Shown here piece by piece: positions 1,054 through 22,138 of a stretch of 64,000 bases of DNA. The notes under the pieces were generated by a model that saw nothing but the letters and a program-made list of their open reading frames with translations, had not been told where the DNA came from and made no database searches. Origin of the DNA: Nitrospirota bacterium (GTDB lineage Bacteria; Nitrospirota; UBA9217); contig OY760142.1 in NCBI GenBank assembly GCA_963663225.1, forward strand, positions 195,913 through 259,912, written 5' to 3'. Position 1 is the stretch's first letter; every line of letters starts with the position of its first letter. Both the position numbers and the translations under genes were made by a program.

Positions 1054-1848
1054 TCATGCTCTATATTTAAAAAACGCGGACCAGATGCGATAGTACAGTT
1101 TGCTTCCCAGTGCTTTTTTAGCAACTGCCTTCGCGCTATACACAAGTTTTTCCTTTGCAGCATAGGAGGAATCGGCGCCTACAATCTGCCGAAAGCAGCT
1201 TATCGGCATGGATCGTGTGATTACGAACCGGTTAAAAACGGTACTGCTTCCAGTACTTGTTGTTTTATTCAAACCAGGGCAGGATGTTGCCACTCCTTTA
1301 TAGCCGGCCTCCTGCGCCGCACGTAAAACGTTCCGGGAGCAAAACCCGCCTGGCAGAGAAATAAAATCAACAGGCAGAGAAAGTTCTTTTTGCAGCTGTT
1401 GCTTGGATTCCTGCAATTCATGCATCAAAGCTTTTTTGTCAAGGTCTGAAAGAAATACATGATTAAAGCTATGGGACTGAATCGACATGTTTTCTTTGGC
1501 CATTTCCCTGAGATGCGTCCAATCAACATAACCGGGGGAACCAACCCGACTTACCGTAATAAAGAAGGTTGCTTTCATACCATATCGTTTCAGAATTGGA
1601 AGGGCTGCTGCATAGTCGCTGTAATTGCCGTCATCAAAAGAAATGATGACGTACTTCCCATTTTGATCAAGCAACCGGCTATCCAGCAAGTTTCCTAAAT
1701 CAGCGCTGGAAAATCCATTCTTCGATAGATATTGAATATGCTGTTCAAAAATGTCAGTAGAAATAGCATAATTTTCCGTATTATCAGTTCCCTCAAACAG
1801 CGCATGATAAAGGAGTACAGGCACACGTAAAGTATTATTCGTCGGCAT
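1054..1848 (-). CDS. polysaccharide deacetylase (NodB-homology domain)
   Basis: 264 aa ORF with NodB motif VIISFDDGNYSDY and downstream His-containing motifs (SHSFNHVFL). Confidence 0.8.
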   Translation of the reverse strand: MPTNNTLRVPVLLYHALFEGTDNTENYAISTDIFEQHIQYLSKNGFSSADLGNLLDSRLLDQNGKYVIISFDDGNYSDYAAALPILKRYGMKATFFITVSRVGSPGYVDWTHLREMAKENMSIQSHSFNHVFLSDLDKKALMHELQESKQQLQKELSLPVDFISLPGGFCSRNVLRAAQEAGYKGVATSCPGLNKTTSTGSSTVFNRFVITRSMPISCFRQIVGADSSYAAKEKLVYSAKAVAKKALGSKLYYRIWSAFFKYRA

Positions 1849-1851
1849 GTT

Positions 1852-3003
1852 CTATACCATTACTTCCTTGTAAAGCGCAAGGTACCGGGCAGACATACGG
1901 TCAGACGAATAGTTTGCCCGGACTGTTTCATATCCACCTTCAGCATAACGTCTTCGCTTGCCGTCATCTGCAAGCAGTGAAGAAAGTGCATCTTCCAGCC
2001 CCTGAACATCTCCAGGAGCAACAAGAATGCCGTTTTCTTCCTGGATGATATTCGGAATAGCACCTACGCTCGTGGCTATGACCGGCTTCTGCGCCGCCAT
2101 GGCTTCCAGTAATACCATGGGAAGCCCTTCTTTAATTGAAGGAAGGACGAATATATCCATAATGGACAGGAGTTCCGGGATGTCCGTCCGGAAACCGGTG
2201 AAAATTACATTTTTATTCAAGCCGTACTGCTCAGTTTCCTGCTTCAAAAAATCGAGAAGAGGGCCTTCTCCCACGATAAGCATCTTGACAGCTCTGCCGG
2301 AGGCAAAAATATTTCTGGCGGCCTGCAAAAGATACGTATGTCCTTTTTCCACACCGAGATTCCCTATAGTGCCGACCACGAGCTCATTGAGCGAAATCCC
2401 CAGTTCACGTTTAAGTTTTTCCACCGGATGATGGTTCTGAAATCTTGTCAGATCAATCCCATTGTCTATAACACTGATCTTTTCCGCCGGTACGCCTGAA
2501 TTCAACATGTCACTTCTTACACCTTCCGATACGGCGACAATTTTATTAAAAAAACGAATCAGCAGACTGTCAATCCGTCGGTATATGCGTAGTTTCCAGT
2601 GAGACGTAAGCCAGTTATGGTTTGTCGCTACGAGCGGCATGCCTTTTTTTCTGGCCAGCAAGGCATAGAAATTTGACTTATATCCGTGGCAATGAATGAT
2701 ATCAATGTCTTTTTCGCGGACAAATGTCCGTATCGCTTCAACCGCTTTGCTGTCGAATTTTGCCTTGCATGAAAAAACAACCGCAGCAATAGAATTTTTT
2801 CCGGCTTCCTCCACGACTTCCTTGTGGGGATTATAGGTATTCATGATGACGCCGATAACAGGTTCGCACCGTTGCCGCTTCAGACTGCTGCATAGTTCGA
2901 TCGCAACCCGTTCTGCTCCATACAGTCCTCTGCTGCTGATCAAGTGCAAAACTTTCAGGGGTCGCGCAGTATTTGCTGGGTGAGAGGATGTCAACTCTTG
3001 CAC
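1852..3003 (-). CDS. glycosyltransferase family 4
   Basis: 383 aa ORF; C-terminal GT4 signature FVLPSIKEGLPMVLLEAMAAQKPVIATSVGAIP. Confidence 0.8.
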   Translation of the reverse strand: MQELTSSHPANTARPLKVLHLISSRGLYGAERVAIELCSSLKRQRCEPVIGVIMNTYNPHKEVVEEAGKNSIAAVVFSCKAKFDSKAVEAIRTFVREKDIDIIHCHGYKSNFYALLARKKGMPLVATNHNWLTSHWKLRIYRRIDSLLIRFFNKIVAVSEGVRSDMLNSGVPAEKISVIDNGIDLTRFQNHHPVEKLKRELGISLNELVVGTIGNLGVEKGHTYLLQAARNIFASGRAVKMLIVGEGPLLDFLKQETEQYGLNKNVIFTGFRTDIPELLSIMDIFVLPSIKEGLPMVLLEAMAAQKPVIATSVGAIPNIIQEENGILVAPGDVQGLEDALSSLLADDGKRRRYAEGGYETVRANYSSDRMSARYLALYKEVMV

Positions 3004-3648
3004 GTATCATCTCCGCACTTTTTGGCATTTGGCATAATGTCCTGTTTTTGCGCAGGGGCCAAAATCCGGTAGAAAGTCAGAAAAATTAGTTTCATATCAT
3101 AGAAAAATGAACGATGCAGTATGTATTCCTTTGCCATCCGCATTTTTTCCGGGAGAAGCACGGTCAGATAAAAATGTTCCGGGTTGTCCTGTCCTTTCAG
3201 AACGCTTTCTTCATCCCTGAATGTCAGAGATGAAATATCCGTAATGCCCGGGCGCACGCTCAGAATGGTTTCATATTCCTGTTTGTAATACTCGACGTAT
3301 TTCTTTACTTCCGGCCGTGGTCCCACTATGCTCATATCGCCTGTTACAACATTGATAAGCTGCGGCAGTTCATCAATTTTTGTTTTTCTCAATATCCGTC
3401 CAATCGCAGTAACACGTGCGTCGCCGCCCGCAGTAATCTGCAATCCGCTTTTCTGAGCATCACGCACCATGGTCCTGAATTTGTAAATAAAAAACGGTTT
3501 GAACCTCCGGCCCATCCGTTCCTGTTTGAAGAAAACAGGACCATCGCTGCCGAATCTGACTAGAAAAGCGACGACGATAAAGAGCGGCAATAGGACCAGA
3601 AGTCCGATCAAAGCACTGAAAAAATCAAAAAGGCGTTTTATCATCATA
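2991..3648 (-). CDS. polyprenyl-phosphate sugar-1-phosphate transferase (bacterial sugar transferase, short WbaP/PglC type); likely priming transferase
   Basis: N-terminal TM helix, then KIDELPQLINVVTGDMSIVGPRP and SVRPGITD motifs typical of bacterial sugar transferases. Start placed at the tandem ATG pair (MMIKRLFDFF). Confidence 0.75.
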
Positions 3649-3689
3649 GCATGTAAGCATAAATAGCGGTGCGGCGCGTGCACGCGTCG

Positions 3690-4913
3690 TTACTTCTTAT
3701 AGAGCGTGATAATTTCCGTGACAGTCCGAATCACCCGGTCGATATCACTCTCGGTCATTTTCGGATAGATTGGCAGGGAGATTATCCTCTTGTAGGTTTC
3801 GAATGCCACAGGATACTGTTCAGGTTTGTATCCGAAGGTATCCCGGTAATACGGATGGATATGCAACGGAATAAAGTGAACGGAGGTCCCGATTCCCCGC
3901 TGCCTCAGTTCCTCGATGAATCGGTTCCGGTCGATGTTTAGGGTCTCCAGATTCAGTTTGAGCACATACAGATGCCAGCCGTGCTTATATTGCTGGGCAC
4001 CACCCGTTAACTCCGAAGAATTGCTCCCGTCCATCTCCGGAAGTTCAACTGCCGAAAGCTTCGAAAATGCCTGGCTGTATCTTTCGGCGATATATTTTCT
4101 CCGCTTCCATAATTCATCGGCTTTTTTCAGCTGAACAATGCCCAGAGCAGCCGCTGTATCCGTGAGATTGTACTTATAACCCGGCGCTATAATTTCATAA
4201 TACCAGCTTCCTTCCGCCGTATATCTTTTCCAGGCATCCTTGCTGATTCCGTGCAGGCTCATAATCCTCATCCGATCGGCCCACTCGTCGTTGTTCGTTG
4301 TTATCATTCCGCCTTCACCGGTAGAAATATTTTTTGTTGCGTAAAAGCTAAAGCAGGTAATGTCGCCGATTGTTCCGATAATGTCCTTGCCATATACTGC
4401 AGGAAATGCATGCGCCGCATCCTCAATGACCATCAACCCGAATTTTCTGGCGATGGCCATGATCGCCTCCATGGCACAGGGACGACCGGCGTAATGAACG
4501 GGAATGATGGCTTTCGGCAGAGCAGAGCCGCGCTCAGCGCATGAAGACAGATACGCTTCTATGCCGGCGGGGGCAATGTTCATCGTCACCGGGTCAATAT
4601 CAACAAAAACCGGTACTGCTTTGAAGTAACGGATCACTTCGGCGGTGGCAGCAAACGTCATGGGGGTTGTAAGAACCGAATCGCCCTCCTTGATGCCGAT
4701 GGCCTCCAGCGCGAGGTGAAGGGCGGCTGTGCATGAGTTTACCGCGATAGCGTGCTTGCATCCGATGTATTTTGCGAAATCGCTTTCAAATTGTTTTGTA
4801 CGAGGACCGGTTGTTATCCACCCGCTTTTAAGGGTATCTACAACAGCCTGAATTTCCTCGTCTCCGATCAACGGAAGTGAGAAAGGAAGAAAATCATTTT
4901 TATTTGCACTCAT
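3690..4913 (-). CDS. DegT/DnrJ/EryC1/StrS-family PLP-dependent sugar aminotransferase
   Basis: Start at internal ATG (MSANKNDF) preceded by AAGGAG RBS. Family-typical N-terminal region LPLIGDEEIQAVVDTLKSGWITTGP and overall length about 407 aa. Confidence 0.85.
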   Translation of the reverse strand: MSANKNDFLPFSLPLIGDEEIQAVVDTLKSGWITTGPRTKQFESDFAKYIGCKHAIAVNSCTAALHLALEAIGIKEGDSVLTTPMTFAATAEVIRYFKAVPVFVDIDPVTMNIAPAGIEAYLSSCAERGSALPKAIIPVHYAGRPCAMEAIMAIARKFGLMVIEDAAHAFPAVYGKDIIGTIGDITCFSFYATKNISTGEGGMITTNNDEWADRMRIMSLHGISKDAWKRYTAEGSWYYEIIAPGYKYNLTDTAAALGIVQLKKADELWKRRKYIAERYSQAFSKLSAVELPEMDGSNSSELTGGAQQYKHGWHLYVLKLNLETLNIDRNRFIEELRQRGIGTSVHFIPLHIHPYYRDTFGYKPEQYPVAFETYKRIISLPIYPKMTESDIDRVIRTVTEIITLYKK

Positions 4914-4930
4914 CTGACGCTCCTTAACAG

Positions 4931-5710
4931 TTATCTGAATTTTCTGCCGCGGCTCAGGAAACGCTTCACATCTTCCCTGTCCGGCCAACCGTAGTAATTT
5001 CCCTTAGTCATATCGAGCGAACGGGTTGCAACATCGTTCCTGACAATTTTTTCTATGCCTTCAAGCACCATTTCCGCACCAATCTGTTTGGAATGCCGGA
5101 TAAAGGAATCCAGGGTGTCATGCTCACGGATTAGGAATTGCCTCTGGACCAGCACATCGCCCGCGTCGATTTTTTCGTTTACAAAAAACAGCGTGCTCCC
5201 CGCTTCCTTTTCGCCATTTGCAAGGACCCAAAACGACGGCATTACGCCCCGGTAATCAGGCAGCAGCGAACCGTGAAGGTTCAGGCAGCCTTTCGGTGCC
5301 AGCTGGATCAAGTCCTTTTTAAATATCTGCGGACATGATATGGATACGATAAGCTCCGTGTCCCAATCTTTTAAGAGTTGCCGGGTCTCCGGGCTGTTTA
5401 CATCAAGAGCCTGCACATAAGGAATACCGTACGCCGCCAGCACCGACTTAAGCGAATAATATTTTCCTGTTTTGCCGCCAAAACGATCCATCACCTTGTG
5501 TGACAGAACCTGAACGGAAAGCATCCCGGCTTCCCAGAAACCGAACGTTTTTGCATAGCGCAACGCAAGCCCCAGCGTTGTTGTTTTTTTGTAAAGCGGC
5601 GGAACAACGATAACTTTAACCTCATGCCGGCCTTTCAGATTTTCAAGAACAAACTGGTAGAATTCCGGCAAATACAGCGGTTCATCCGGCGTTAAAAAAA
5701 CAATGCGCAT
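4931..5710 (-). CDS. formyltransferase (Fmt/ArnA N-terminal-domain-like)
   Basis: 259 aa ORF with formyl-transferase core LNLHGSLLPDYRGVMPSFWVLANGEKEAGSTLFFVNEKIDAGDVL. Confidence 0.7.
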   Translation of the reverse strand: MRIVFLTPDEPLYLPEFYQFVLENLKGRHEVKVIVVPPLYKKTTTLGLALRYAKTFGFWEAGMLSVQVLSHKVMDRFGGKTGKYYSLKSVLAAYGIPYVQALDVNSPETRQLLKDWDTELIVSISCPQIFKKDLIQLAPKGCLNLHGSLLPDYRGVMPSFWVLANGEKEAGSTLFFVNEKIDAGDVLVQRQFLIREHDTLDSFIRHSKQIGAEMVLEGIEKIVRNDVATRSLDMTKGNYYGWPDREDVKRFLSRGRKFR

Positions 5711-5711
5711 G

Positions 5712-6572
5712 CTATATTCCTGCCTTTTCGCGGTGTTTTTGCAAAATGTCCGTTATTGTCCCGAACCTGCTCAACTGCAGAAGTCCGGCCACTTTTTCCT
5801 CAAATCCGGCACGTCCGATTCCCTGATGCAGTCTGCGAGTGACGGGAACATGCTTCATCATCTCTTGCCATTCCAGCGGGTTAAATTCATACGGATGGCA
5901 GTAAATAACAAAGGGCATATTTTCTTCTTCAATCCGTTTCAGACATCGCTTCAAAAACCAGGCCGGAAACAAACGAAAATATCCGCCTCCTCCTATCGGG
6001 ATACGAAGACCTGCGGGCCGCTTCAACTGGAGGACAGTGACCGGCAGTTCTTCCAGAGGTCCTTCCGGAGTCTCAATCCTGCTGTATCCCCGTGCAAAAC
6101 CTTCTATGCCGTAGCGAGGGGTTTTTAAAGGGAAAATGGACGAATCAAATTTAATACCGCACTCAACCATGACATCAAACGCCCAGAAGTTATCCTTGTC
6201 GATAGAAAAATCAGGAGCACGGAATCCGGTTACCGGTTTTCCGATAATGTCTTCAATCAGTTTGCCTGTCTCCGTTAATTCCTGTTTAAATGCTTTCGGC
6301 GTAAGACTGTAGACCGGTCGATGAGAATACCCGTGCGACTGGACTTCATGGCCGTTCGTACAAATCTCTTTGATCAACTCTGGATACTGTTTCGCAACCA
6401 TCCCCTGGACGAAAAATGTGCCCTTTACATTCAAACGTTCAAGAAAGCCAAGAACATGCCGTGTGTTCCGGACGCAAAGTTCACTGATGGGCGCGTCAAA
6501 GTTGTAAGAAGACTGGTACCAGTCTTCAACATCCACAGAAAAGGCGTGAATACTATTGTTTGCCATATTCAT
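5712..6572 (-). CDS. polysaccharide deacetylase-family protein (DVEDW-type, as in PEP-CTERM-locus deacetylases; possibly a deformylase)
   Basis: 286 aa ORF starting MNMANNSIHAFSVDVEDWYQS, with His-rich catalytic region (HEVQSHGYSHRP). Assignment to the PEP-CTERM-locus subfamily is from recalled motifs only. Confidence 0.7.
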   Translation of the reverse strand: MNMANNSIHAFSVDVEDWYQSSYNFDAPISELCVRNTRHVLGFLERLNVKGTFFVQGMVAKQYPELIKEICTNGHEVQSHGYSHRPVYSLTPKAFKQELTETGKLIEDIIGKPVTGFRAPDFSIDKDNFWAFDVMVECGIKFDSSIFPLKTPRYGIEGFARGYSRIETPEGPLEELPVTVLQLKRPAGLRIPIGGGGYFRLFPAWFLKRCLKRIEEENMPFVIYCHPYEFNPLEWQEMMKHVPVTRRLHQGIGRAGFEEKVAGLLQLSRFGTITDILQKHREKAGI

Positions 6573-7609
6573 TATCTGCTGAGTGATTCGAACCAGCTTG
6601 ATTTGAAATTGAGGAATCGGTTAGCCAACCCAAACAGAAAGCCTGTTCCGAAACCCGTATGAATGCAGAAGATGGAGGCGGCAATGCCGGACCAAAATTT
6701 CATCTCGTGTTTCAGGGCGATTCTCAGGGCTTCCGCTGCAAGTGCAACCAGATAACCGCCTGTGTACAGAAAAAAGCATGCGGCCGCATAGTTGCTGAAC
6801 AGTCCAACACACCCCAGTACGCCGAATCCGGCTACAAGCAGCGCTGGCATGTAATGGCGCCATGAGGCCTGCCGGGGATGCTTTTCCAACACAAATACTT
6901 TCCAATAACCGTATTGCAAAAACTGTTTGAACAGCTGTTTGAACGTTTTTCTAGGAAAATACTGGATCTTGATTCTGCCTGATTGAATGACTTTGCCTCC
7001 ATTCTTTCTCAAACGGAACGATAACTCATCATCCTGATTCCTGATCATGCGTTCGTCATACAAGCCGACTTCAATGAGGCGGCTTTTTTTGAAACAGCCG
7101 CCGTATACCGCATCGGTCTCGCCGATGAAATCTCCCCGATCACGCAAGGCGCCTCCCATGGCTATGGGACTTTTATATGCAAGCGCAATGCTTTGCTGCG
7201 TGTAGGTAACGCCTGCCGGCACCAGCACACCACCGGCATTATCGGCACCGGTCTGCTCCATGAGGCCAATCAGTTCCGTTAAATAGTTTTTCGGATGAAC
7301 GCACCGTACGTCTGCGCGCACAATATATTCCCCCCGAGCCTGCATGATTCCGAGATTCATGCCGTGTGGAACCGTTTTCTGCGGGTTGTCCAGAACGGTC
7401 AGCCCAGGGTATTTAGTCTGAAGCGTTGTATACATATCCCTGGTTCCATCCGTGCTCATGCCGTCAATGACAATAACTTCAAAACCGTCGGCTGGTGCGT
7501 CAAAACCATAAATGTTATCCAGACAGCTTTCAATATGTCCGGCTTCGTTCCTGCAGGGAATCAGGACTGAAGCTTTCAATTTTTGTCCGACGCTGTTTTT
7601 CATGTTCAT
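6572..7609 (-). CDS. glycosyltransferase family 2 with C-terminal transmembrane helices (polyisoprenyl-phosphate glycosyltransferase-like, ArnC/DPM1/GtrB type)
   Basis: 345 aa ORF; N-terminal GT2 region LIPCRNEAGHIE...VIVIDGMSTDGT and about two hydrophobic helices at the C-terminus. Confidence 0.75.
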   Translation of the reverse strand: MNMKNSVGQKLKASVLIPCRNEAGHIESCLDNIYGFDAPADGFEVIVIDGMSTDGTRDMYTTLQTKYPGLTVLDNPQKTVPHGMNLGIMQARGEYIVRADVRCVHPKNYLTELIGLMEQTGADNAGGVLVPAGVTYTQQSIALAYKSPIAMGGALRDRGDFIGETDAVYGGCFKKSRLIEVGLYDERMIRNQDDELSFRLRKNGGKVIQSGRIKIQYFPRKTFKQLFKQFLQYGYWKVFVLEKHPRQASWRHYMPALLVAGFGVLGCVGLFSNYAAACFFLYTGGYLVALAAEALRIALKHEMKFWSGIAASIFCIHTGFGTGFLFGLANRFLNFKSSWFESLSR

Positions 7610-7643: not shown

Positions 7644-8945
7644 TTAATGGAACTCGTATGCTCCCATATCGAAACCAGTTCCTTGAGGCCGCTTCACGCC
7701 GTCTTTATCCGTCATAACATCCGGCAACGCTACACCTTTATTGATCGCTGCGGAATTCTGCTGAAGGTGGAAATTTTCCTGCCGCGGGTTTATAAACCGC
7801 GGATCGCCGGTCACCGGAGACGTATCCGTCAATTTCAGCAGTTTTACCGGCTTGGGCCAGTACAGGTTGTTCGCGATCCTGATAGTCGAATTTCCTTTTT
7901 CGTTTTTTACATGCTGCGTACTCGCTGTCGAGCCGTCAGCGTTCGACAAGTCGAATATATTATTCTGCACGACGACGTTGTTTATATCCCGTTCGGTTCC
8001 ATAAATCGACAGCGCCGCCCCTCCATTGCCGAAAATAGTATTATTGAAAATTTTTACGTTTGACACAACACCCGGAACATAGATGCCGCTGTGGGGATTG
8101 TTAAAAAGGATATTGTTTCTGATAATAACGTTTTCAATTCTTGCGTGATCATATGCCGCAAGGATGATTCCCGACCGCTGCAGAGAATTGGCGACAATAT
8201 TCCCTTCTATCACAACATCTTTTATCAGCCGCTCAAAACCCGGCTTGTCGCCACCGCGCCGCTGGTCAAAGACATGAATTCCATAGCCGCTCATTCCGCG
8301 AGCTGTGTTGTTTTTTATTTTAATGTTTGTACCGTGGCTGATATAGTAGCAATGACCCTGGGTTCCTACGCTGCTTGCTTTGATATCGCAGACATTCCCT
8401 TCAAGAAGAATATTATTGCCGCTCACACCGATCGCATCCCATGAATATCCGGCTCCTGAAAAATTATTATTTACCAGCTGTATCGTGGTACGGTTGATCC
8501 CGCCCGCACCGATTGACTTTCCGTTTTTAAAATGCAGCCCTTCAATACGGATATAGTCGCATTCGATGATAAAGGGCCTTTGACTGTTCACAAAAACAGG
8601 CGTCTCGTGCGGATACGCTTTTATCGTCACCAACTTTCCGGGTGCGCCGCAGTGGCCGTATTCCGCCCGAAGCCATACTTCACTTTCCTGATAGGTTCCG
8701 CCGCGAACAAGCACGGTGTCTCCCGGCCGCGCTTTTCGCGCCGCGTATTCCACGCTGCCCCAGGGACTGCTCTGAGACCCGCTGTTTCTGTCAGATCCGC
8801 TTGATGATACATAATAGGTGTCTCCCGCGCCGATTGCGGAGACAGGAATCATGGTCAGAATGAGTATAAAAAGAAAAAAACAATATAAGACGGGTTTATA
8901 CACGTTTCCTCCTTGGGATCTCAAGCATCGCTTTGCCGGTGACAA
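7644..8945 (-). CDS. right-handed parallel beta-helix repeat protein with N-terminal TM/signal segment; putative secreted glycanase or polysaccharide lyase
   Basis: 433 aa ORF with repeated PbH1-like turns (VVIEGNIVANS, VIIRNNILFNN, VKIFNNTIFGNGG, VVVQNNIFDLSN, IRIANNLYW). Start uncertain: the ORF overlaps the upstream gene by about 50 nt. Confidence 0.6.
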   Translation of the reverse strand: MSPAKRCLRSQGGNVYKPVLYCFFLFILILTMIPVSAIGAGDTYYVSSSGSDRNSGSQSSPWGSVEYAARKARPGDTVLVRGGTYQESEVWLRAEYGHCGAPGKLVTIKAYPHETPVFVNSQRPFIIECDYIRIEGLHFKNGKSIGAGGINRTTIQLVNNNFSGAGYSWDAIGVSGNNILLEGNVCDIKASSVGTQGHCYYISHGTNIKIKNNTARGMSGYGIHVFDQRRGGDKPGFERLIKDVVIEGNIVANSLQRSGIILAAYDHARIENVIIRNNILFNNPHSGIYVPGVVSNVKIFNNTIFGNGGAALSIYGTERDINNVVVQNNIFDLSNADGSTASTQHVKNEKGNSTIRIANNLYWPKPVKLLKLTDTSPVTGDPRFINPRQENFHLQQNSAAINKGVALPDVMTDKDGVKRPQGTGFDMGAYEFH

Positions 8946-11840: not shown

Positions 11841-12878
11841 TTAAAAACCGGTCAACTTTAGTGCAAAGTACCCTTTTGAGAATCCTCCATGAAGAGACAA
11901 GCTCGAGGCTTCCCACATATTAATCCTTTTTAATGAAAAAGTATCCGAAAGATCATTGACACCTATTTCCGTTGTAACGGCGTATTCATATCCTGCTTCC
12001 TGAACCGCCTTCTTGAGCGCAGAATCGATATTTCCGCATGGATACGAAAAGCTGTTTACCTGCTGCCGGGTGTTCTCTTCTATAATCTGTTTTGAATCAT
12101 ACAGTTCATGTTTCAACTGTATTTTGTCTATCATGGTCGGGTTGTCATGACTGCAGGTGTGAGAGCCGAATTGACCATGATCATGCATCGACGCGATCTG
12201 ATTCCAGCTCATTATAGGATTGCTACTTTTTAATTTTTCGTGGTCTGTCTGCAACTTTTCGTGGAGTATTTTGAGAAGTGAATCTACTTTTTTTGAATCC
12301 CACTCATTAACTCTGGCAAAGAAACCAGACGGGTTTTTCTCAAATTCCTCGAACAACATTGCTACTTCAGAGTTTGTCCGCTGTATAAGTGTCTCTTTGC
12401 TGCCCCATTGCTGCATCTGAATAAGGTAATAATACAATTGATCCCACCAGAACGGATTCTCATCTTTGCTACCGATTTTATCGGCAGTGAGAAAGAATGT
12501 CGCGGTCAAATCCAGTTTTTTAAGCACTGGGTAGGCATTCCGATAGTTATCTTCATAACCGTCGTCAAAGGTAATAATCAGCGAGTTGGAAGGTAACTTA
12601 TTGCCGGGATAATTTTTTTTTAAATCCTGGAACGAAAGAACAGTATACCATTTCTTAATAAAGCGTAGTTGATTCTCAAAACTCTCTACTGTTGTAAACA
12701 GATATGGCAGCGACGCGTCAAGTTTACTGAGCGATTGGCCAGTCACCCTGTGATAGGTTATGATGGTAAGCCGATTACCGGCAATATTGTTCAGAAAACG
12801 GACAAAATGAAATAATCCGGTGTATAGATATAGCAAACCAACGGCTCTTCGAACAGTTTGTTTTATTTTAGTAACCAC
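11841..12878 (-). CDS. membrane-anchored polysaccharide deacetylase (NodB domain)
   Basis: 345 aa ORF; N-terminal TM helix, NodB motif LIITFDDGYEDNY and His motifs (HTCSHDNP). Confidence 0.7.
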   Translation of the reverse strand: MVTKIKQTVRRAVGLLYLYTGLFHFVRFLNNIAGNRLTIITYHRVTGQSLSKLDASLPYLFTTVESFENQLRFIKKWYTVLSFQDLKKNYPGNKLPSNSLIITFDDGYEDNYRNAYPVLKKLDLTATFFLTADKIGSKDENPFWWDQLYYYLIQMQQWGSKETLIQRTNSEVAMLFEEFEKNPSGFFARVNEWDSKKVDSLLKILHEKLQTDHEKLKSSNPIMSWNQIASMHDHGQFGSHTCSHDNPTMIDKIQLKHELYDSKQIIEENTRQQVNSFSYPCGNIDSALKKAVQEAGYEYAVTTEIGVNDLSDTFSLKRINMWEASSLSLHGGFSKGYFALKLTGF

Positions 12879-12919: not shown

Positions 12920-13996
12920 TTAATGATTTCCCCAGGATAACAACATTCTTTTTAATGAGACAAGCATTTTTATCGCATTAAAAGGAAACACTGAGCACAA
13001 GCGGTAAAACCAGAAGGTGTTATCACAGTACGGATTGTTTATCGATTTAATCACCTTCCAGATTGCTTCCGCTTCATACCGCATGCCTTTTTTTAGATAC
13101 TCTTTGTATAAAAGCACAAGCAACCTTTTGTATTCTCTTTCAATCTCTTCTATTGCGGGTCTGTTCGGACTTTGCGATGGGAAATATATTTTTTTACAAA
13201 TATCGATATGATACCGCAATTTTGTAAGATATTCGACCTGCGTAAGACGATTACCGGCATGACTTCTGTTGCCCGCTGTGGCAATATCCATAAAAATAAG
13301 ATCACAATCCTGCGTCAAATGGGCCATAAGCCAGTAATCTTCCCATGTCAAATAACCTTCCGAAAATCGAATCTTCTTCTCAAAACATTCTCTTTTTGCC
13401 AGAAGTGTCCAAGCACTAATATAGTTATTTTTTAATTCTGCAGAAAATAGATTTCCTGCATATATGTCAAAAGAATCGTTATTATAGGTTATCCCAAAAT
13501 CCCTAGAGCTGTATTGTTTCGAATATACATCTGACCAAGTGCGAATACTTCCTTTTTCCCCCATACCCACCCAGGTATGCAAACCATTATTCGAAATAAT
13601 CCCCGTCTTATCAAATATGTAAAAATCTGAATGCACCGCTTTATAGGTAGGAAAAGCCCGCAACACGTTAAATTGCAATGACAGCTTAAATGGCATCCAT
13701 ATATCGTCAGAATCTAAAAAGGCGAGCCATTCGTTCTGCGCCTCCTGGATTCCACGGTTTCTTGCTGCGCCTGCACCGGCATTTTGCTGGCAAATATATT
13801 TTATTTTACTGCCGAAGCCCAGCACAACTTCCCGCGTATTGTCTGTTGATCCATCATCAACAACAATAATTTCAATATCGCAATTGTGGATATCCTGATC
13901 GAGCACGCTTCGGATTGACTCGGCGATTAAACCAGCACGATTAAAAGTAGGAATTATTACAGATACAGACGGGAACTCAGTCATATTATTAACCAT
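12920..13996 (-). CDS. glycosyltransferase family 2
   Basis: 358 aa ORF; GT2 N-terminus VSVIIPTFNRAGLIAESIRSVLDQ...IEIIVVDDGSTDNT. Confidence 0.75.
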   Translation of the reverse strand: MVNNMTEFPSVSVIIPTFNRAGLIAESIRSVLDQDIHNCDIEIIVVDDGSTDNTREVVLGFGSKIKYICQQNAGAGAARNRGIQEAQNEWLAFLDSDDIWMPFKLSLQFNVLRAFPTYKAVHSDFYIFDKTGIISNNGLHTWVGMGEKGSIRTWSDVYSKQYSSRDFGITYNNDSFDIYAGNLFSAELKNNYISAWTLLAKRECFEKKIRFSEGYLTWEDYWLMAHLTQDCDLIFMDIATAGNRSHAGNRLTQVEYLTKLRYHIDICKKIYFPSQSPNRPAIEEIEREYKRLLVLLYKEYLKKGMRYEAEAIWKVIKSINNPYCDNTFWFYRLCSVFPFNAIKMLVSLKRMLLSWGNH

Positions 13997-15116
13997 GGGT
14001 GGTCAACTTAAACAATTTTTTCGCGAAATCTTTTATACTGAAAATAGACTGTAATAATTGTCCTTTATAACTTTTATTAAATGCACATACTATGACATGT
14101 TTTCTCTCGTTTTCCTTCGCCCATATTCGCTTCCATGTCATGGAGGGTCCGAGAAAATCAAATTCAGTTATGTTACGCTTGAAGACGGCATCAAATTGCA
14201 TCCATTTAAGCGTGTTGCCTACTCCGAATTCATGGTATGTTTCGTCAAATTCAGTTTTTAAATCATACAAGGTGTTTTCATACAGCAGACAAAAGTCAAA
14301 AACAACGGGTGTATTTCCGGCATAAAGAATATAAAGCTCCAACCATGCTTCCCGTGCAGCGGTATACGCCAAGTCACGGTAAAAAGATTTTAGTAATGGT
14401 GTCGAAGAAAGAGCCGTGCCCTCCCTGGCTTTCCAGCTTTTTGCAGCAATTGTGAATACATCATCAAGTGCTTTATCCAACTCAGATGAGTCCTTATAGG
14501 AGATAAGTTTTACAGGACCGTTTTCCTCTAGTTTTTTAAACCTGCTGTTCAAACCTCTCTTAAATCGTGGCTGAAGGTTCTTAATATAGTCATCCCAGCA
14601 GTTCGTTATGGGTATATACGGCGTCGACATTTGAAAATACTGTTTGCAGGAAATGTCTTTTTTCTTCAAAGACGCTAAAAAGTGCTTTTTAGCAGGTGAA
14701 TCGTCGTAAAAATACTCAAGATTCAGTAAATCCCATGTTTCGCCATATTCATTCAGCAAGCATGAGACTATAACATCGCATGCTTGTTCTGGCTTATCAC
14801 TTAATATTAGATCTGCTCTGTTTGAATGAACATTTGCTATAAATTCAATTTTGTTTGCGTTCAGTGTTGTGTTTGTTTTGCCAATGACAGTATATGGTCC
14901 TTGGTTGAACATAAAAGGAGCTATCGCAATAAGTTCGTTTTTATCATATACAAGTATGATAAAGAGCTTATTTTCGGACCGGAAGGCTCTCCACCATGCA
15001 TCCATCCATTCGTGAGTTAGAAAAACAAAGGGGTGAAGACTTCGTTTTAGCAAGTTGTTCCAAGCATTCTTAATCTCCAAAAAATCTTCATATGTATTTA
15101 TGACGTGAACCTTCAT
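13989..15116 (-). CDS. FemAB-like / GNAT-fold acyltransferase (CelD/BioF2-like), paralog 1 of 3
   Basis: 375 aa ORF. Shares N-terminal W-rich motif (THEWMDAWWRAF) and C-terminal EFDFLGPS-type motif with the next two genes. Confidence 0.6.
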   Translation of the reverse strand: MKVHVINTYEDFLEIKNAWNNLLKRSLHPFVFLTHEWMDAWWRAFRSENKLFIILVYDKNELIAIAPFMFNQGPYTVIGKTNTTLNANKIEFIANVHSNRADLILSDKPEQACDVIVSCLLNEYGETWDLLNLEYFYDDSPAKKHFLASLKKKDISCKQYFQMSTPYIPITNCWDDYIKNLQPRFKRGLNSRFKKLEENGPVKLISYKDSSELDKALDDVFTIAAKSWKAREGTALSSTPLLKSFYRDLAYTAAREAWLELYILYAGNTPVVFDFCLLYENTLYDLKTEFDETYHEFGVGNTLKWMQFDAVFKRNITEFDFLGPSMTWKRIWAKENERKHVIVCAFNKSYKGQLLQSIFSIKDFAKKLFKLTTHG

Positions 15117-15127
15117 TTCATGGTATT

Positions 15128-16273
15128 TCAGGATTTTTTGGCGATATATGCAGTCTGGCTGGGCAAACCGGCACTTCTAAATAGTTTTTTTGCTGAGCAT
15201 TTTATACGATATAAAATATTCGAGAGCGTACCATTTATTGTTTTGTTATAAAGAGTAACCGTAAACAAAGGACGGCCATCTTTGGTCCAGCCGCTTTTAT
15301 ATTCCTCGCTTCCCTGTAAGAAGTTATACTCTGTATTGCCGTTTTGAAAGGCTTCTTTGATTGCCTCAAATACAATAGCTTTGCCCGGTCCAAACCGCTC
15401 CCATTTTACGTCCATTCCCTTCTGATAGGAAAATATGCGTCCTTGATAGTTAAAATTATAAGAAGCGGCAATGACGTCTTTTTTGTTTCGCAAAAACCTC
15501 ATGGAAATCCAACCGGAGTTGTTTATGCGTTTTGACAAAGCCTTGTGGAATTCGAGAATCGCGGCATCATTAAAGGTGCTGCGGATTTTTTTTCTACTGG
15601 ATCTGCTCGCATGAATAGCAAACAAGGTATCAAATGCTTCAGGTTCGGCCAGCGGGTCACACGATTCATATGAGAAGCCCTGCGCTTCCAGTTTCTTTTT
15701 TCTGCTTTTCAGGTTGTATCTTTGTTTGGAATCAAGGGTATTTACAAAATCTTCAAAGCTGCCGTGCAACGGAATAAAGTAAGCGTAGGAATCCTGCCGG
15801 ATATTGTAACAGAGGCCGTTCCTGTAATCAGCGCGGTCCTGTTTAGTCCATGAAATAAAGTTGCTGCCCTCAGCAAACAGTCGCAAATCAAGAACGTCCC
15901 ATTCTCTATATTCAGAATACAGGAAATTACAGAGTGCTTCGATGCATGCTTTCGCGTTTTCTTTTGATGCAATAACATCAAGATGGTCAGGATACAGCTC
16001 CCTGCAGCCGCAATAGGTTAATACACGGCCGACAGTACATTCTCTGTTCAAACAAATATTATACGAAGCAAGCGGGAGTATGCCTTTAAGTTCGGAATCC
16101 TCATACACAAATAAAATGAGAGGCATATAGCTTTCACCAAACTGTTCCCACCAGGTATATATCCATTCCCAGGTGCAGAAGATTGATGGAATCGGCATCG
16201 AAGCCGCCAAACAGTTCCAGGCGTCCCTGCTGTTTTCGAATTCCTTCTCAGTTGCGATCTTTACTGTATACAT
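15128..16273 (-). CDS. FemAB-like / GNAT-fold acyltransferase, paralog 2 of 3
   Basis: 381 aa ORF; CTWEWIYTWWEQF N-terminal motif and EYNFLQGSEEYKSGW C-terminal motif, collinear with paralogs 1 and 3. Confidence 0.6.
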   Translation of the reverse strand: MYTVKIATEKEFENSRDAWNCLAASMPIPSIFCTWEWIYTWWEQFGESYMPLILFVYEDSELKGILPLASYNICLNRECTVGRVLTYCGCRELYPDHLDVIASKENAKACIEALCNFLYSEYREWDVLDLRLFAEGSNFISWTKQDRADYRNGLCYNIRQDSYAYFIPLHGSFEDFVNTLDSKQRYNLKSRKKKLEAQGFSYESCDPLAEPEAFDTLFAIHASRSSRKKIRSTFNDAAILEFHKALSKRINNSGWISMRFLRNKKDVIAASYNFNYQGRIFSYQKGMDVKWERFGPGKAIVFEAIKEAFQNGNTEYNFLQGSEEYKSGWTKDGRPLFTVTLYNKTINGTLSNILYRIKCSAKKLFRSAGLPSQTAYIAKKS

Positions 16274-17414
16274 TTTTTATCAGTTTCTTGCCCGGTTTAA
16301 TGACCCGTTGTGACAGGTAATGTACCGCCCTATTGGAGACGTTATTTTTCTTAATAAAAAGCGAGAAATTAAACCGAGTATTGTTTGCCCAGAAGTATTT
16401 ATATTTTTCATCGCCCCGGAGAAAATCAAACTCAGAACATCTCTCGGAAAAAGCTTTTTCGATCATCAGGGATAACAGAACCGTGCCCGCACTTTTTTCT
16501 TCCCCGTGCGCGGACAGTCCTGTTTGGTAATAGTAGTATTTGTTGTTGTACTTTATACAATAATAAAAAGCCTGATAAACCGACTCCTTCAGGAGAAAGG
16601 CAATAATTATTTTGTTTTCATTCAGTAAGTAGCCAACCAAGGATTCGTGGAAACTATAGACCTTGTCTCCTCTGAAGGCAGTCGGATAATTTTTTCTTTT
16701 TGCACGTTCCGCATGAAGCAAGAATAAAGTCTTCAGGTAGTGCTGCAGATTACCGGATTGGCTGTCCAGAATGCGGCATTTCCAGTTTTCCTTTTCCAGC
16801 AGATTTTTTTTCTTGCGCAGAAGTGTATTGCGTGTTTTTCCTGAAAAAGAACCGAGAAAGTCCTCAAAAGTTTTATCGATAGTCAGATAGGGGCAACGAG
16901 AGTCCGCGTTGCATTCAATGAGTAATTTTAGGAGCCCGTTTCGATGATCCGAAAGATACTTTTTTATGCAGGAGTTTTCATGCACGCCTTCCAGTGTTAT
17001 TTCATCCCATTCCATCTCATGCGTCTGTAGATAATCAAATACCAGCTTCGGGAAAAGGTGTTCAACTCTTCTATCGCAAAGAATGTCGAGATGATCGGGA
17101 GCAGTCTCGGAAGAGGAGCAGAATTTGACTGTATTGCGTCGGACACCGAAATATCTTTTTTTCTCGATATAAAACGGCGCAATCCCGACTAGTTGCCCTT
17201 GTGTGTCATAACCACAGACAATAAGTAGTTCTTTCTTTTCGTTTTTAAACGTATTCCACCAGGAAAACATCCACTCCCAAGACAAAAAGAATTCATTCGT
17301 AACGCTTCTGTTCAGGAGTTCGTTCCATTGTTCCCGCAGAAAAGTAAAATCTTTTTCCGAGAGCCGTTTTATAAAAAGAGATTTCACTTCTATGTCTGAC
17401 TTCGTTGTTATCAT
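16248..17414 (-). CDS. FemAB-like / GNAT-fold acyltransferase, paralog 3 of 3
   Basis: 388 aa ORF; LSWEWMFSWWNTF and EFDFLRGDEKYKYFW motifs. Overlaps paralog 2 by 26 nt. Confidence 0.6.
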   Translation of the reverse strand: MITTKSDIEVKSLFIKRLSEKDFTFLREQWNELLNRSVTNEFFLSWEWMFSWWNTFKNEKKELLIVCGYDTQGQLVGIAPFYIEKKRYFGVRRNTVKFCSSSETAPDHLDILCDRRVEHLFPKLVFDYLQTHEMEWDEITLEGVHENSCIKKYLSDHRNGLLKLLIECNADSRCPYLTIDKTFEDFLGSFSGKTRNTLLRKKKNLLEKENWKCRILDSQSGNLQHYLKTLFLLHAERAKRKNYPTAFRGDKVYSFHESLVGYLLNENKIIIAFLLKESVYQAFYYCIKYNNKYYYYQTGLSAHGEEKSAGTVLLSLMIEKAFSERCSEFDFLRGDEKYKYFWANNTRFNFSLFIKKNNVSNRAVHYLSQRVIKPGKKLIKNVYSKDRN

Positions 17415-20509: not shown

Positions 20510-22138
20510 CTATTTGTCCGACGTTCCGTAAACGCTGCTGAGCAGCGCTCTGTCTATTTTCTTGCTTTTATTTTTGGGAAGCTGTTCGAGTCTGACAAGA
20601 TGCTGCGGGATCATATATCGGGGCAGGCTCTTTTTCAGGTTGTGGTGAATCTCTTCATGGCAGTCCGCGGCCGCCTCGTAAACAAGTTTGAGTGACTTAA
20701 TTTCACCGTTTTCCCGGACCGGGATGACAACATTACCCGTCACTGAATCAACTTTTGAAACAACTCTCTCGATTTCCTGCAAATTGATTCGATATCCGAA
20801 AAATTTGATCTGACTGTCCTTGCGGCCATGGATGCAGTAGCCGACCCCGGGAATAAAAGACGCGACATCCCCGGTCCTGTAAAACGGCACCCCGTGCTCA
20901 TCCCTTCCAAAAACCTTGTTCGTTTTGTCAGGATCATTCCAATATCCGATAGACAAATGAGGAGAATGGACGATGAGCTCTCCTCGCTCTTCATTTTCCG
21001 GGAAGTCGGTTTTGTCAAGCGTGAAACGGATTCCCATGATCGGGAAACCGATGGGAACGGCGCCTCCGTCCTCGCCCTTGTAATCGTTCAGCGAGAAAAC
21101 AGCCATCAGTGACGATTCAGTAGATCCATAGCCGTTGATAAACTTTGCGTTGGGCAGCATGGCCATCACAGTTGCCAAAATATTCCGGTTGGCGGGTTCT
21201 CCGCCGAGCAAAACAGTTTTTAGCCCCTGAAGATGCTCCGGCTTGATCAGACCGCTGTTTACGAGAGCGTTCAGCGTCGAGGTGACCAGCAGCGTTCTGG
21301 TGACTTTGTACGTATATGTAAGGTCCAGAATGTCCTTCGGAAAAATTACTTCTTCTGGGTAAACAGCAAGTGTTCCACCTGAACACAGCGGTGGAAATAT
21401 GTCAGCGGTTGAGGCGGAGAATGCGGTTGCATTCAGCCCACTGGTCACGTCATCCACGTTATAACCCAGGGTATCGATCACCCACTGGACATTCTTGAAA
21501 ATATTGCCGTGGGGAATCATGACGCCTTTCGGCTCGCCGGTGGAGCCTGACGTGAAATAAATCATCGCCAGATCATTCGGCAAAAGGTCTACTTTTTGTG
21601 GATCATCCCGCCGCGCGCTTCCGAACGGCAATTTGACGAAATCGCGTTCTTCGCCATCGTCAAGCAGAACGGCCTGAAAACGCCCTGGAGATAGTTCCGC
21701 ACATTTTCTGAACAGGTCAGCTGAAAAGCGGTCGGCAAAAACGCGAAGCGGCGATATTTCAATCAATAAATCAGTCAGTCTGGCCGGCGGTGTTTTGGTG
21801 TCCAGAGGAACAACGACTCCTCCCGCTCTTATGATGCCGATCATGGCGGCATACAGATAGATTGACCTGTTCATCATGAGTGCGACACGATCGCCTTTTT
21901 TCAGACCACTCTCCTGCAGATACTGTGAAACATCGAGAGTCAGTTCGCGCAGTTCATGATAGGTCCATGCTTTGTCATACAGCCGTATCGCGGCTTTTGA
22001 TGCGTGCAAAGCAAACATCTTATCGAGCAGATCCATGATGGTAGAAACGGCTGATTGATTTTCTGCTTGTTTCTGGTTTATCGCGGTGTTTTTTTCCATG
22101 GGATTCTTTTTGACAATTGCATTGTCCTGAAGTTCCAT
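20510..22138 (-). CDS. adenylate-forming enzyme (AMP-dependent synthetase/ligase, acyl- or aminoacyl-activating), ligase 1
   Basis: Start placed at internal ATG (MELQDNAIV) 2 nt after the upstream stop. AMP-binding motifs YFTSGSTGEPKGV, GYGSTE and YRTGD are present. Confidence 0.8.
   Translation of the reverse strand: MELQDNAIVKKNPMEKNTAINQKQAENQSAVSTIMDLLDKMFALHASKAAIRLYDKAWTYHELRELTLDVSQYLQESGLKKGDRVALMMNRSIYLYAAMIGIIRAGGVVVPLDTKTPPARLTDLLIEISPLRVFADRFSADLFRKCAELSPGRFQAVLLDDGEERDFVKLPFGSARRDDPQKVDLLPNDLAMIYFTSGSTGEPKGVMIPHGNIFKNVQWVIDTLGYNVDDVTSGLNATAFSASTADIFPPLCSGGTLAVYPEEVIFPKDILDLTYTYKVTRTLLVTSTLNALVNSGLIKPEHLQGLKTVLLGGEPANRNILATVMAMLPNAKFINGYGSTESSLMAVFSLNDYKGEDGGAVPIGFPIMGIRFTLDKTDFPENEERGELIVHSPHLSIGYWNDPDKTNKVFGRDEHGVPFYRTGDVASFIPGVGYCIHGRKDSQIKFFGYRINLQEIERVVSKVDSVTGNVVIPVRENGEIKSLKLVYEAAADCHEEIHHNLKKSLPRYMIPQHLVRLEQLPKNKSKKIDRALLSSVYGTSDK

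Follow-up and report, generated by a model that had tools for sequence, protein, structure and literature searches.

The four consecutive genes at 3690–7609 of the 64,000-nucleotide stretch analyzed here (the window) belong to two modules. A CE4 deacetylase gene (DA) and an N-formyltransferase gene (FT) constitute a widespread, uncharacterised two-gene cassette. It is separate from a backbone in which the genes for a membrane glycosyltransferase (GT2), an aminotransferase (AT), a phosphoglycosyl transferase (PGT) and a GT4 enzyme lead on to a PglF-like gene. The identities of the genes, their intact catalytic motifs, the modularity and the coupling of DA to FT are documented below. Our best explanation, to which we give about an even chance, is that the two modules form one Wzx/Wzy-dependent XrtA/PEP-CTERM-type operon and that DA-FT swaps N-acetyl for N-formyl on a surface polysaccharide.

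Gene layout

The preliminary description had proposed a cluster of aminotransferase, formyltransferase, deacetylase and GT2 genes. The cluster is real: four consecutive minus-strand ORFs occupy the same coordinates and their Pfam assignments agree. They lie inside a >42-kb XrtA/PEP-CTERM-type, Wzx/Wzy exopolysaccharide locus, carried by a Nitrospiraceae-like MAG, with the following features.

1054–1848, minus strand: second CE4 deacetylase (DA2), without DUF3473 (Pfam PF01522); backbone
1852–3003, minus strand: GT4 glycosyltransferase (Pfam Glycos_transf_1/Glyco_transf_4); backbone
2991–3683, minus strand: small PglC-type polyprenyl-phosphate phosphoglycosyl transferase, PGT (Pfam Bac_transf, E=2e-58); backbone
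3690–4913, minus strand: DegT-family PLP sugar aminotransferase, ArnB/PseC-like, AT, 407 aa (Pfam DegT_DnrJ_EryC1, E=1e-127, 427 bits); backbone
4931–5710, minus strand: stand-alone N-formyltransferase, FT, 259 aa (Pfam PF00551 Formyl_trans_N, E=4e-25); cassette gene 2
5712–6572, minus strand: CE4 deacetylase with DUF3473 C-terminal half, DA, 286 aa (Pfam PF01522 Polysacc_deac_1, E=1e-21, and PF11959 DUF3473, E=4e-29); cassette gene 1
6572–7609, minus strand: membrane GT2, ExoA-like/PcManGT-like, 345 aa (Pfam PF00535 Glycos_transf_2, E=8.5e-21); backbone
7644–8945, minus strand: secreted right-handed beta-helix protein, upstream of GT2 (Pfam Beta_helix); backbone

The spacing from GT2 to PGT is operon-like. 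The GT2 stop and the DA start share 1 nt, and a gap of 1 nt lies between DA and FT. A 17-nt gap with a ribosome-binding site separates FT from AT, whose true start is the ATG at 4913 (preceded by AAGGAG), and PGT follows AT after ~6 nt. In a 93%-identical relative (L006), a PglF-like dehydratase is encoded just past the position of the window's left edge.

Separate conservation of backbone and cassette

In three loci (L096, L097 and L098) the gene order is conserved for orthologs of Wzx, Wzy, the beta-helix protein, GT2, AT, PGT, GT4, DA2 and PglF. Identities to the window proteins are 60–63% for GT2, 67–72% for AT, 63% for PGT and 55–60% for GT4; orthologs of DA2 (54%, in L096) and of the beta-helix protein (64–66%, in L096 and L098) occupy the same positions as in the window. 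None of the three loci contains FT or a DUF3473 gene, and in them GT2 directly abuts AT. The AT orthologs from these three loci resemble the window AT as closely as do those from cassette-bearing loci, and PGT comes after AT in all orthologous loci.

The cassette was followed through 83 FT loci from Nitrospirota, Thermodesulfobacteriota, Actinomycetota, Chloroflexota, Planctomycetota, Verrucomicrobiota and other groups. DA lies immediately upstream of FT on the same strand in 73, with a 4-nt overlap in 42 of these; ten loci have no adjacent DA. Counting fusions, DA is adjacent or fused in about 90%. One protein (P0433) is an FT-DA fusion, FT is found fused to CE4 and to GT2 domains, and on a haloarchaeal plasmid a CE4 gene overlaps the FT gene. 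A DegT aminotransferase is present within 10 kb in only 11–13 of the 41–44 loci flanked on each side by 8 kb or more (about a quarter; 10-kb flanks were examined), and the compact contexts SDR-DA-FT and GT4-DA-FT contain no aminotransferase. GT2-AT-PGT blocks occur without DA or FT, and in most lineages DA-FT is found with neither AT nor this GT2, so the four genes do not form a single evolutionary unit. It is therefore unlikely that transient formylation is an obligatory step tied to this AT and GT2.

Activities encoded by the four genes

The family closest to DA is TIGR03006, the XrtA/PEP-CTERM deacetylases, although its score of 228 bits is under the cut-off of 276. In the family alignment D14, H80 and H84 never vary, and H226 hardly does. 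No signal peptide or transmembrane segment was found in the sequence, and DA is predicted to be cytoplasmic. Similarity to ArnD is of the generic CE4 kind (23% identity over only 82 aa), phmmer gave no match at E<0.01, and a ~43-residue segment of ArnD is absent from DA in the alignment. DA was thus rejected as an ArnD-type deformylase, a member of a different CE4 subfamily, and the initial assignment of its DVEDW N-terminus to the PEP-CTERM type rather than to ArnD was borne out.

FT belongs to an uncurated family. The Pfam match covers only residues 99–214, and every NCBIfam match is far under its cut-off (fmt, 102 bits against 201.5). The triad N144/H146/D182 and the LLPxYRG folate loop (SLLPxYRG in FT) are invariant in the family alignment; the triad aligns with N102/H104/D140 of ArnA, to whose formyltransferase domain FT is 31% identical. 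The AlphaFold2 (AF2) model (pLDDT 91.9) was similar to the ArnA formyltransferase domain, Fmt and WbkC alike in Foldseek (TM 0.65–0.71 for all three; WbkC about 0.65–0.72). The N-terminal region is family-specific: the motifs VPPxYK and RYxxxFG are invariant there, and residues about 45–77 form a helical hairpin. The C-terminal tRNA-binding domain of Fmt is missing. The placement with Fmt that would have counted against the Arn reading was not seen: FT does not group with Fmt and is equidistant from Fmt, ArnA and WbkC. From these residues, DA and FT both look active, and the product of the locus very probably includes an N-formylated amino sugar, as had been suggested.

These data bear on the possibility that the gene order is fortuitous, with DA and FT acting on unrelated substrates (FT, for example, in one-carbon or tRNA metabolism) and sharing no function. 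JGI pipelines do call FT homologs 'methionyl-tRNA formyltransferase', and Fmt scores about equal to ArnA for FT. Such a role is nevertheless extremely improbable given the missing Fmt domain and the low fmt score, and chance gene order is effectively refuted by the conservation statistics: the 73/83 adjacency, the CE4 and GT2 domain fusions and the constant location in glycan loci exclude it.

AT is ArnB-like, as first described. It is 40% identical to E. coli ArnB over its full length, with the PLP lysine aligned, and ArnB (1mdo, 312 bits) was the top match in a PDB search, in which PglE scored about 135 bits. Against NCBIfam, PseC (392 bits) and ArnB (379 bits) both fall under their equivalog cut-offs.

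The AF2 model of GT2 (pLDDT 87.7) has an interface helix (223–243) followed by three transmembrane helices (250–269, 273–300 and 303–333), which accords with the predicted C-terminal membrane helices. Its best full-length Foldseek match is PcManGT (6yv7, TM 0.62/0.62). JGI annotation calls GT2 homologs 'ExoA'. The accompanying claim of an ArnC-like lipid-carrier enzyme fails: an NCBIfam search gave no ArnC family match, identity to ArnC is 21% over 120 aa, RADVRC stands at the place of the ArnC DADLQN, and ArnC has two juxtamembrane and two transmembrane helices. Since every ArnC feature tested failed, GT2 was rejected as an ArnC-type polyprenyl-phosphate glycosyltransferase.

Proposed acetyl-to-formyl exchange and comparison with known systems

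We propose that the PglF-like UDP-GlcNAc 4,6-dehydratase and AT would produce a UDP-4-amino-4,6-dideoxy-HexNAc-type sugar, that the small PGT would load it onto undecaprenyl phosphate, and that the GT4s and the membrane GT2 would lengthen the lipid-linked repeat unit. DA-FT would be a mobile tailoring cassette that has been inserted into the backbone between GT2 and AT. Cytoplasmic DA would take the N-acetyl group off an amino sugar in the growing unit, lipid- or nucleotide-linked, and the translationally coupled FT would formylate the exposed amine with N10-formyl-tetrahydrofolate as donor. The net effect would be replacement of acetyl by formyl, with the N-formyl sugar staying in the finished polymer. 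The reaction order, the substrate and the stage at which DA and FT act are what we infer here. A dispensable cassette needs a net chemical change, and therefore deacetylation followed by formylation fits, whereas formylation followed by deformylation does not. VimE/VimA, NodB/NodA, LpxC/LpxD and MshB/MshC follow a deacetylate-then-re-acylate logic; ArnA/ArnD protect and deprotect.

Several points weigh against this exchange. In E. coli, too, arnA overlaps its neighbour arnD by 4 nt, so adjacency alone does not fix the reaction order. The amine could come straight from the ArnB-like AT beside FT. Exopolysaccharide loci can be longer than 40 kb, so that an aminotransferase may sit beyond the examined 10-kb flanks, and ten of the 83 FT loci have no DA next to FT.

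Known NDP-sugar N-formyltransferases act on NDP-sugars, on amines from DegT aminotransferases. By that classical route FT would formylate the 4-amino group of the AT-made nucleotide sugar (as do WbkC, VioF and the ArnA N-domain), PGT would move the 4-formamido sugar onto the lipid carrier, and DA would independently de-N-acetylate another residue. FT adjoins AT not only in the window but also in relatives from Nitrospirota, Thermodesulfobacteriota and Thermoanaerobaculia, in some actinobacterial loci (L058, L072 and L081) it lies immediately before a small PGT and DA is absent, it has the size and fold of these enzymes, and no PglD-like acetyltransferase lies beside AT, so that the 4-amine may be free. 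We nonetheless regard the route as possible but rather unlikely: DA accompanies FT far more often than DegT does, AT orthologs match the window AT equally well with or without the cassette, and the N-terminal half of FT, which holds the acceptor site in NDP-sugar enzymes, is family-specific and has no Pfam match.

An Arn-like transient formylation, in which FT formylates the AT product to pull transamination, GT2 or PGT transfers it to a polyprenyl carrier and DA deformylates it on the lipid, is improbable. An ArnB-like AT, an FT with the ArnA-type triad, a CE4 enzyme and a membrane GT2 do stand side by side, co-oriented and tightly packed, and the adjacent FT and CE4 genes are comparable to arnA and arnD. 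GT2 and DA, however, are not of the ArnC and ArnD types, and a search of the window found no homologs of ArnT, ArnE/F or the ArnA dehydrogenase and no UDP-GlcA decarboxylase (the ArnA-decarboxylase equivalent). The genes lie instead in an exopolysaccharide locus of the Wzx/Wzy type, in which the PGT is PglC-type and an Arn-type flippase is absent. Most DA-FT loci lack an aminotransferase in the flanks examined. The backbone exists without FT and DA; flux therefore does not depend on formylation, and a cassette that adds a formyl group only to remove it again would make no net change. With genes that do not co-vary in evolution, the Arn pathway logic originally put forward is not upheld. The ArnB-like AT, the N-formyl sugar and the PEP-CTERM-type deacetylase survive from that analogy, and only AT resembles its Arn counterpart.

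The backbone recalls the initiation modules of bacillosamine/AAT-type systems (PglF-PglE-(PglD)-PglC; EpsC-EpsN-EpsM-EpsL), in which the genes for a membrane PglF-like 4,6-dehydratase, a DegT enzyme and a small Bac_transf PGT likewise lie together, but no PglD-like acetyltransferase adjoins AT, which is nearer ArnB/PseC than PglE. GT2 resembles ExoA and PcManGT (PDB 6YV7) in its architecture, in which the GT-A domain leads into an interface helix and then three C-terminal transmembrane helices, although identity is only about 20–30%; homologs on rhizobial megaplasmids are 28–30% identical (the S. meliloti pSymB match comes from a record without gene annotation). FT has the fold, Asn-His-Asp triad, folate loop and size (about 250–270 aa, no Fmt C-domain) of WbkC, VioF, WlaRD, FdtF/QdtF, WbtJ, Rv3404c and PseJ, and differs in its coupling to a deacetylase and in its N-terminal region. 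A literature search on the DA and FT families found no biochemical data.

The closest parallel to the proposed exchange is VimE with the FemAB-like VimA (TIGR03019) of Porphyromonas and Tannerella, a step of the Wbp/Vim pathway, together with its homolog in XrtA/PEP-CTERM loci, the TIGR03006-TIGR03019 gene pair. VimA sets which amino acid (Ser or Gly) joins the C-2 amine of the sugar, on genetic evidence, and the CE4 enzyme VimE was proposed, not demonstrated, to remove the acetyl group first; the same gene pair has been remarked in PEP-CTERM loci (PMC7468200). TIGR03006 deacetylases 33–37% identical to DA are encoded directly upstream of, and overlapping, FemAB/GNAT genes on D. vulgaris pDV, on a Vibrio plasmid and in Halobaculum. 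In each case a cytoplasmic CE4 gene precedes, and often overlaps, the gene for an N-acyl-transferring enzyme in a glycan locus, and the proposed logic is removal of N-acetyl and transfer of a different acyl group onto the exposed amine. DA is likened to this system through TIGR03006 members, below whose cut-off it scores. Its partner is a folate-dependent FT rather than a FemAB/GNAT aminoacyl transferase, and the new acyl group would be formyl.

Genes of the cluster and the surrounding locus

Positions 3690-7609 hold four successive minus-strand ORFs, transcribed in the order GT2 (membrane glycosyltransferase), DA (CE4/DUF3473 deacetylase), FT (formyltransferase) and AT (DegT aminotransferase). 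A phosphoglycosyl transferase gene (PGT) starts ~6 nt past AT.

Table. The gene cluster in order of transcription
GT2: 6572-7609, minus strand; 345 aa; Pfam Glycos_transf_2 (E = 8.5e-21)
DA: 5712-6572, minus strand; 286 aa; Polysacc_deac_1 (E = 1e-21) and DUF3473 (E = 4e-29)
FT: 4931-5710, minus strand; 259 aa; Formyl_trans_N (E = 4e-25), residues 99-214 only
AT: ATG at 4913 (the ORF as listed extends to 4988), minus strand; 407 aa; DegT_DnrJ_EryC1 (E = 1e-127)
PGT: 2991-3683, minus strand; small Bac_transf phosphoglycosyl transferase

The stop of GT2 and the start of DA share 1 nt, a gap of 1 nt lies between DA and FT, and the 17-nt gap between FT and AT carries an AAGGAG ribosome-binding site; the junctions among the four genes are operon-like. 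The four adjoining genes named in the preliminary description are real, with coordinates, Pfam families and tight junctions all borne out.

The cluster belongs to a single minus-strand exopolysaccharide locus that runs from position 1 to ~42.7 kb. The head of the locus (36175-42688) encodes five XrtA/PEP-CTERM families that score above the NCBIfam cut-offs (ATPase, export protein, chain-length determinant, tyrosine autokinase and outer-membrane protein), together with an UpxY antiterminator. No exosortase gene (EpsH/XrtA) was found within the 64-kb window. The middle of the locus contains AsnB-type and WbuX-type amidotransferases, a TviC-like SDR, hexapeptide acyltransferases, adenylating enzymes with an ACP and a PLP decarboxylase, further GT2 and GT4 genes, three tandem FemAB-like (Acetyltransf_6) genes, two more CE4 genes, a Wzx flippase, a Wzy-like polymerase and a β-helix protein. 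The nearest relative is an uncultured Nitrospiraceae MAG (locus L006), whose FT shares 93% protein identity.

Several features of the window stand apart from the cluster. A PrmC/HemK-like glutamine-N5 methyltransferase homolog (30433-31305, above the TIGR03534 cut-off) lies inside the polysaccharide locus, an odd setting for a release-factor methyltransferase, and overlaps the gene for a WbuX-like N-acetyl-sugar amidotransferase (29424-30494) by ~60 nt. Region 20510-25283 encodes an adenylation-domain enzyme, an XrtA-associated PLP decarboxylase, an acyl-CoA ligase and a small PP-binding carrier protein. As listed, the ORFs of the first two share ~140 nt, and the decarboxylase therefore probably starts further downstream. 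At 45698-51601, NuoF- and NuoE-like genes adjoin one for a 1183-aa protein in which a GltD-like NADPH oxidoreductase is fused to a NuoG/formate-dehydrogenase-like module. Their products form a soluble multi-flavin/FeS complex that is unrelated to the polysaccharide locus.

Comparison with the Arn pathway

The preliminary description had matched AT, FT, GT2 and DA with ArnB, ArnA, ArnC and ArnD, implying that an amino sugar is transiently formylated. Each window gene was compared with its counterpart in the arn operon of E. coli K-12. AT and ArnB align over the full length at 40% identity, the PLP lysine included, and ArnB is the top PDB match of AT (312 bits, against ~135 bits for PglE). With the ArnB equivalog model NF008658, AT reaches 378.6 bits (cut-off 631); its score with the PseC model is higher (392). 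The genomic context, with a PglF-like dehydratase and a PglC-like PGT, points to a 6-deoxy-HexNAc as the AT substrate.

[quoted passage not shown] It scores 94.9 bits against the ArnA model NF005998 (cut-off 777) and is a stand-alone protein of 259 aa without the ArnA dehydrogenase domain, for which the sole match in the window was a generic SDR (35183-36235, 35 bits). FT retains the Asn-His-Asp triad and the SLLPxxRG folate loop of Formyl_trans_N enzymes, and the triad residues are invariant in 18 diverse homologs. The AF2 model (pLDDT 91.9) matched the ArnA formyltransferase domain in Foldseek (E = 7e-18). Affiliation was gauged by proxy, from bit scores (PDB and NCBIfam) and from TM-scores in Foldseek, and no clear one emerged: TM-scores to ArnA, Fmt and WbkC were 0.65-0.71, and sequence scores were about equal (Fmt 70, ArnA 70 and WbkC 61 bits). 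A methionyl-tRNA formyltransferase (Fmt) was ruled out because FT lacks the C-domain (there is no Formyl_trans_C match, and the chain stops at residue 259) and is constantly linked to glycan loci; its score with the Fmt model TIGR00460 is 101.7 bits (cut-off 201.5). The family to which FT belongs comprises proteins of 250-260 aa with 46 invariant positions, among them N-terminal motifs peculiar to the family. It contains about 757 clusters at 50% identity (E ≤ 1e-30), which are now mislabelled "methionyl-tRNA formyltransferase".

ArnC-type glycosyltransferases have a DADLQN metal motif, two juxtamembrane and two transmembrane (TM) helices and a C-terminal hairpin (PMC12690121). The C-terminal helices noted for GT2 are present in its AF2 model (pLDDT 87.7), which shows three TM helices in addition to one interface helix. 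At the DXD position, where ArnC, GtrB and DPMS have DADLQ(N/D/H), GT2 has RADVRC, with D100 and R102 invariant. Identity to E. coli ArnC is 21% over 120 aa, and phmmer with ArnC gave no match to the GT2 ORF. The best full-length structural match was the three-TM mannosyltransferase PcManGT (6YV7, TM-score 0.62), and no ArnC, GtrB or DPMS structure was among the Foldseek top 50. Motif, TM layout, identity, phmmer and Foldseek all argue against an ArnC-type lipid-carrier transferase. The name "ExoA" for GT2 homologs comes from JGI product names only, as the rhizobial pSymB records are unannotated.

DA likewise cannot be regarded as an ArnD ortholog. The two share 23% identity over 82 aa, ArnD has a segment of ~43 residues that is not found in DA, and the GGGYFR and HPYEF motifs of DA are absent from ArnD. 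With ArnD, ArnT, ArnE and ArnF as phmmer queries, no match was obtained among window ORFs of at least 60 aa at E < 0.01, and the flippase in the window is of the Wzx/MOP type. Ara4N was ruled out as the product, since Ugd, a decarboxylase and ArnT are all missing. What survives of the Arn analogy is the resemblance of AT to ArnB and, generically, of FT to ArnA, whereas GT2, DA and the absence of ArnT, ArnE/F and a decarboxylase speak against it, and as an interpretation of the cluster it is largely wrong. A neighborhood of aminotransferase, formyltransferase, GT2 and CE4 genes should not automatically be annotated as Arn-like.

Distribution of the DA-FT pair

A genome scan for FT yielded 80 loci, and counts were made across 83 loci. 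They occur in Nitrospirota, Thermodesulfobacteriota, Actinomycetota, Chloroflexota, Planctomycetota, Verrucomicrobiota, Eisenbacteria, Binatia and others. A DUF3473-type DA gene lies immediately upstream of FT on the same strand in 73 of the 83 loci, and 42 of these 73 pairs share a 4-nt stop/start overlap. Where at least 8 kb was available on both sides (41-44 loci), DA was present in 38/41 and a GT4 in 32/41, followed by a small PGT (20-22 of 41-44), any DegT aminotransferase within the 10-kb flanks (11-13 of 41-44) and an orthologous GT2 (7-8 of 41-44).

Fusions were also found (P0433, P0384, P0499 and P0474). FT is joined to a CE4/DUF3473 domain in P0433 (578 aa), to a synthase-like membrane GT2 (642 aa) and to a soluble GT2 (519 aa) in two others, and to ~790 aa without any Pfam match in a 1052-aa protein. 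In a glycan locus on a plasmid of Haloarcula halobia (NZ_CP119788.1; L090, 8177-9801), a CE4 gene overlaps an FT-family gene by 4 nt. With the window DA this CE4 protein shares only 19% identity, suggesting that CE4 and FT became associated long ago or on more than one occasion. DA and FT form a conserved unit. We found no account of this DUF3473 cassette in the searchable literature; its gene families are already known, and loci of this type are commonplace in environmental bacteria, while the cassette is widespread and uncurated.

The remainder of the cluster also occurs without the pair. Around GT2 homologs of 59-65% identity, a conserved block comprises Wzx, Wzy, β-helix, GT2, AT, PGT, GT4, CE4, GT4 and PglF-like dehydratase genes. 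The dehydratase, a 658-aa membrane PglF-like UDP-GlcNAc 4,6-dehydratase, follows the last GT4 in L006, beyond the left edge of the window. In L096, L097 and L098, whose proteins are 53-72% identical to those of the window (AT 67-72%), GT2 abuts AT, and there is no FT or DUF3473 gene. The block is thus a backbone consisting of a bacillosamine/AAT-type initiation module and elongating transferases. It works in the absence of DA and FT, and the window differs from the cassette-less loci in that DA-FT is inserted between GT2 and AT. The cassette-containing locus L004, in which EpsH/EpsI lie downstream of the backbone block, and the cassette-less L096 come from one metagenome sample (JGI 3300057025). 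Their co-occurrence is consistent with the cassette being a strain-level variable tailoring element.

Putative acyl exchange and related systems

By analogy with the VimE/VimA pair described below, we propose that DA would remove an N-acetyl group to leave a free amine, which FT would then formylate, so that acetyl is exchanged for formyl. We regard this exchange as about evenly poised between right and wrong. A free amine is required by FT, and the enzyme family of DA generates such amines from N-acetyl sugars. DA keeps the CE4 Asp-His-His metal triad and the catalytic His/Asp motifs (PF01522, E = 1e-21); D14, H80 and H84 are invariant in the family alignment and E16, R118 and H226 nearly so. 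Both proteins lack a signal peptide and TM segments and the folate cofactor of FT is cytoplasmic, which would place the chemistry before Wzx flipping. The adjacency of the genes cannot fix the order of the reactions, because arnA and arnD are themselves adjacent with a 4-nt overlap. A dispensable cassette should nevertheless make a net change, which favors deacetylation followed by formylation; the Arn-like alternative, in which the amine is formylated and later deformylated, yields no net change and is in our view very improbable.

Alternatively, the neighboring ArnB-like AT may supply the amine to FT directly, with DA acting independently. A few loci in which FT lies beside a PGT without DA fit this explanation. 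An aminotransferase in place of a missing DA is not a clear-cut pattern, as L058 and L072 lack both. The compact SDR-DA-FT and GT4-DA-FT contexts contain no aminotransferase. We consider direct supply by AT unlikely. To our knowledge, all characterized sugar N-formyltransferases use NDP-amino sugars that derive from aminotransferases; acetyl-to-formyl exchange, if correct, would add a second route to N-formyl sugars that is independent of aminotransferases. The large unannotated FT family would then also gain a function, as would one branch of the DUF3473 deacetylases. The GT4-DA-FT arrangement mirrors the logic of MshA/MshB and BshA/BshB.

The remark that the deacetylase is of the PEP-CTERM type was well founded. 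DA scores 228.1 bits against TIGR03006 (cut-off 276.2), true members of which pair with TIGR03019 FemAB-like genes. The TIGR03006 sisters of DA (33-37% identity) lie in the same arrangement upstream of FemAB-family/GNAT genes, as seen in D. vulgaris pDV, a Vibrio plasmid and Halobaculum. Since the downstream partner of DA is FT and not FemAB, we assign DA to a sister subfamily of TIGR03006.

In the Wbp/Vim pathway, the CE4 protein VimE is the proposed deacetylase for the acetyl group at C-2, after which the FemAB-like VimA adds Ser or Gly, the latter shown by interspecies complementation; the gene pair has been noted in PEP-CTERM loci, including that of D. vulgaris (PMC7468200). VimA matches TIGR03019. 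A CE4 protein from a Parabacteroides plasmid (H71) was considered as a link to VimE and dropped, because it lies in a GT87-GT2-CE4 setting that lacks VimA. Such a trio, with a DA homolog of 27% identity, is found on a Parabacteroides distasonis plasmid (NZ_OY725756.1; L099, 4079-6789), where it adjoins LPS-core genes (GT9, InaA kinase) in a context unlike the Vim and FT pairings. In the window, the three tandem FemAB-like/Acetyltransf_6 paralogs (13989-17414) lie beside a GT2 and a CE4 deacetylase gene; the CE4 genes concerned are at 11841-12878 and 1054-1848. Together with DA-FT, these genes may allow several deacetylation and re-acylation steps in the manner of VimE/VimA.

As a tentative proposal, which we hold to be somewhat short of probable, the DUF3473-CE4/FT pair may be an undescribed N-acyl exchange system that produces 2-formamido (N-formyl-hexosamine-type) residues from N-acetyl sugars without an aminotransferase. 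It would be a mobile cassette of surface-glycan loci in at least ten bacterial phyla, with a similar pair on a haloarchaeal plasmid. In XrtA loci, the pair may be a competitor of VimA-like aminoacylation for one and the same amine and so cap sites at which PEP-CTERM proteins would otherwise be attached. The DA-FT finding would generalize the VimE/VimA idea, with DUF3473 deacetylases exposing amines for interchangeable N-acylating enzymes, and this bears on the decoration of XrtA/PEP-CTERM polysaccharides.
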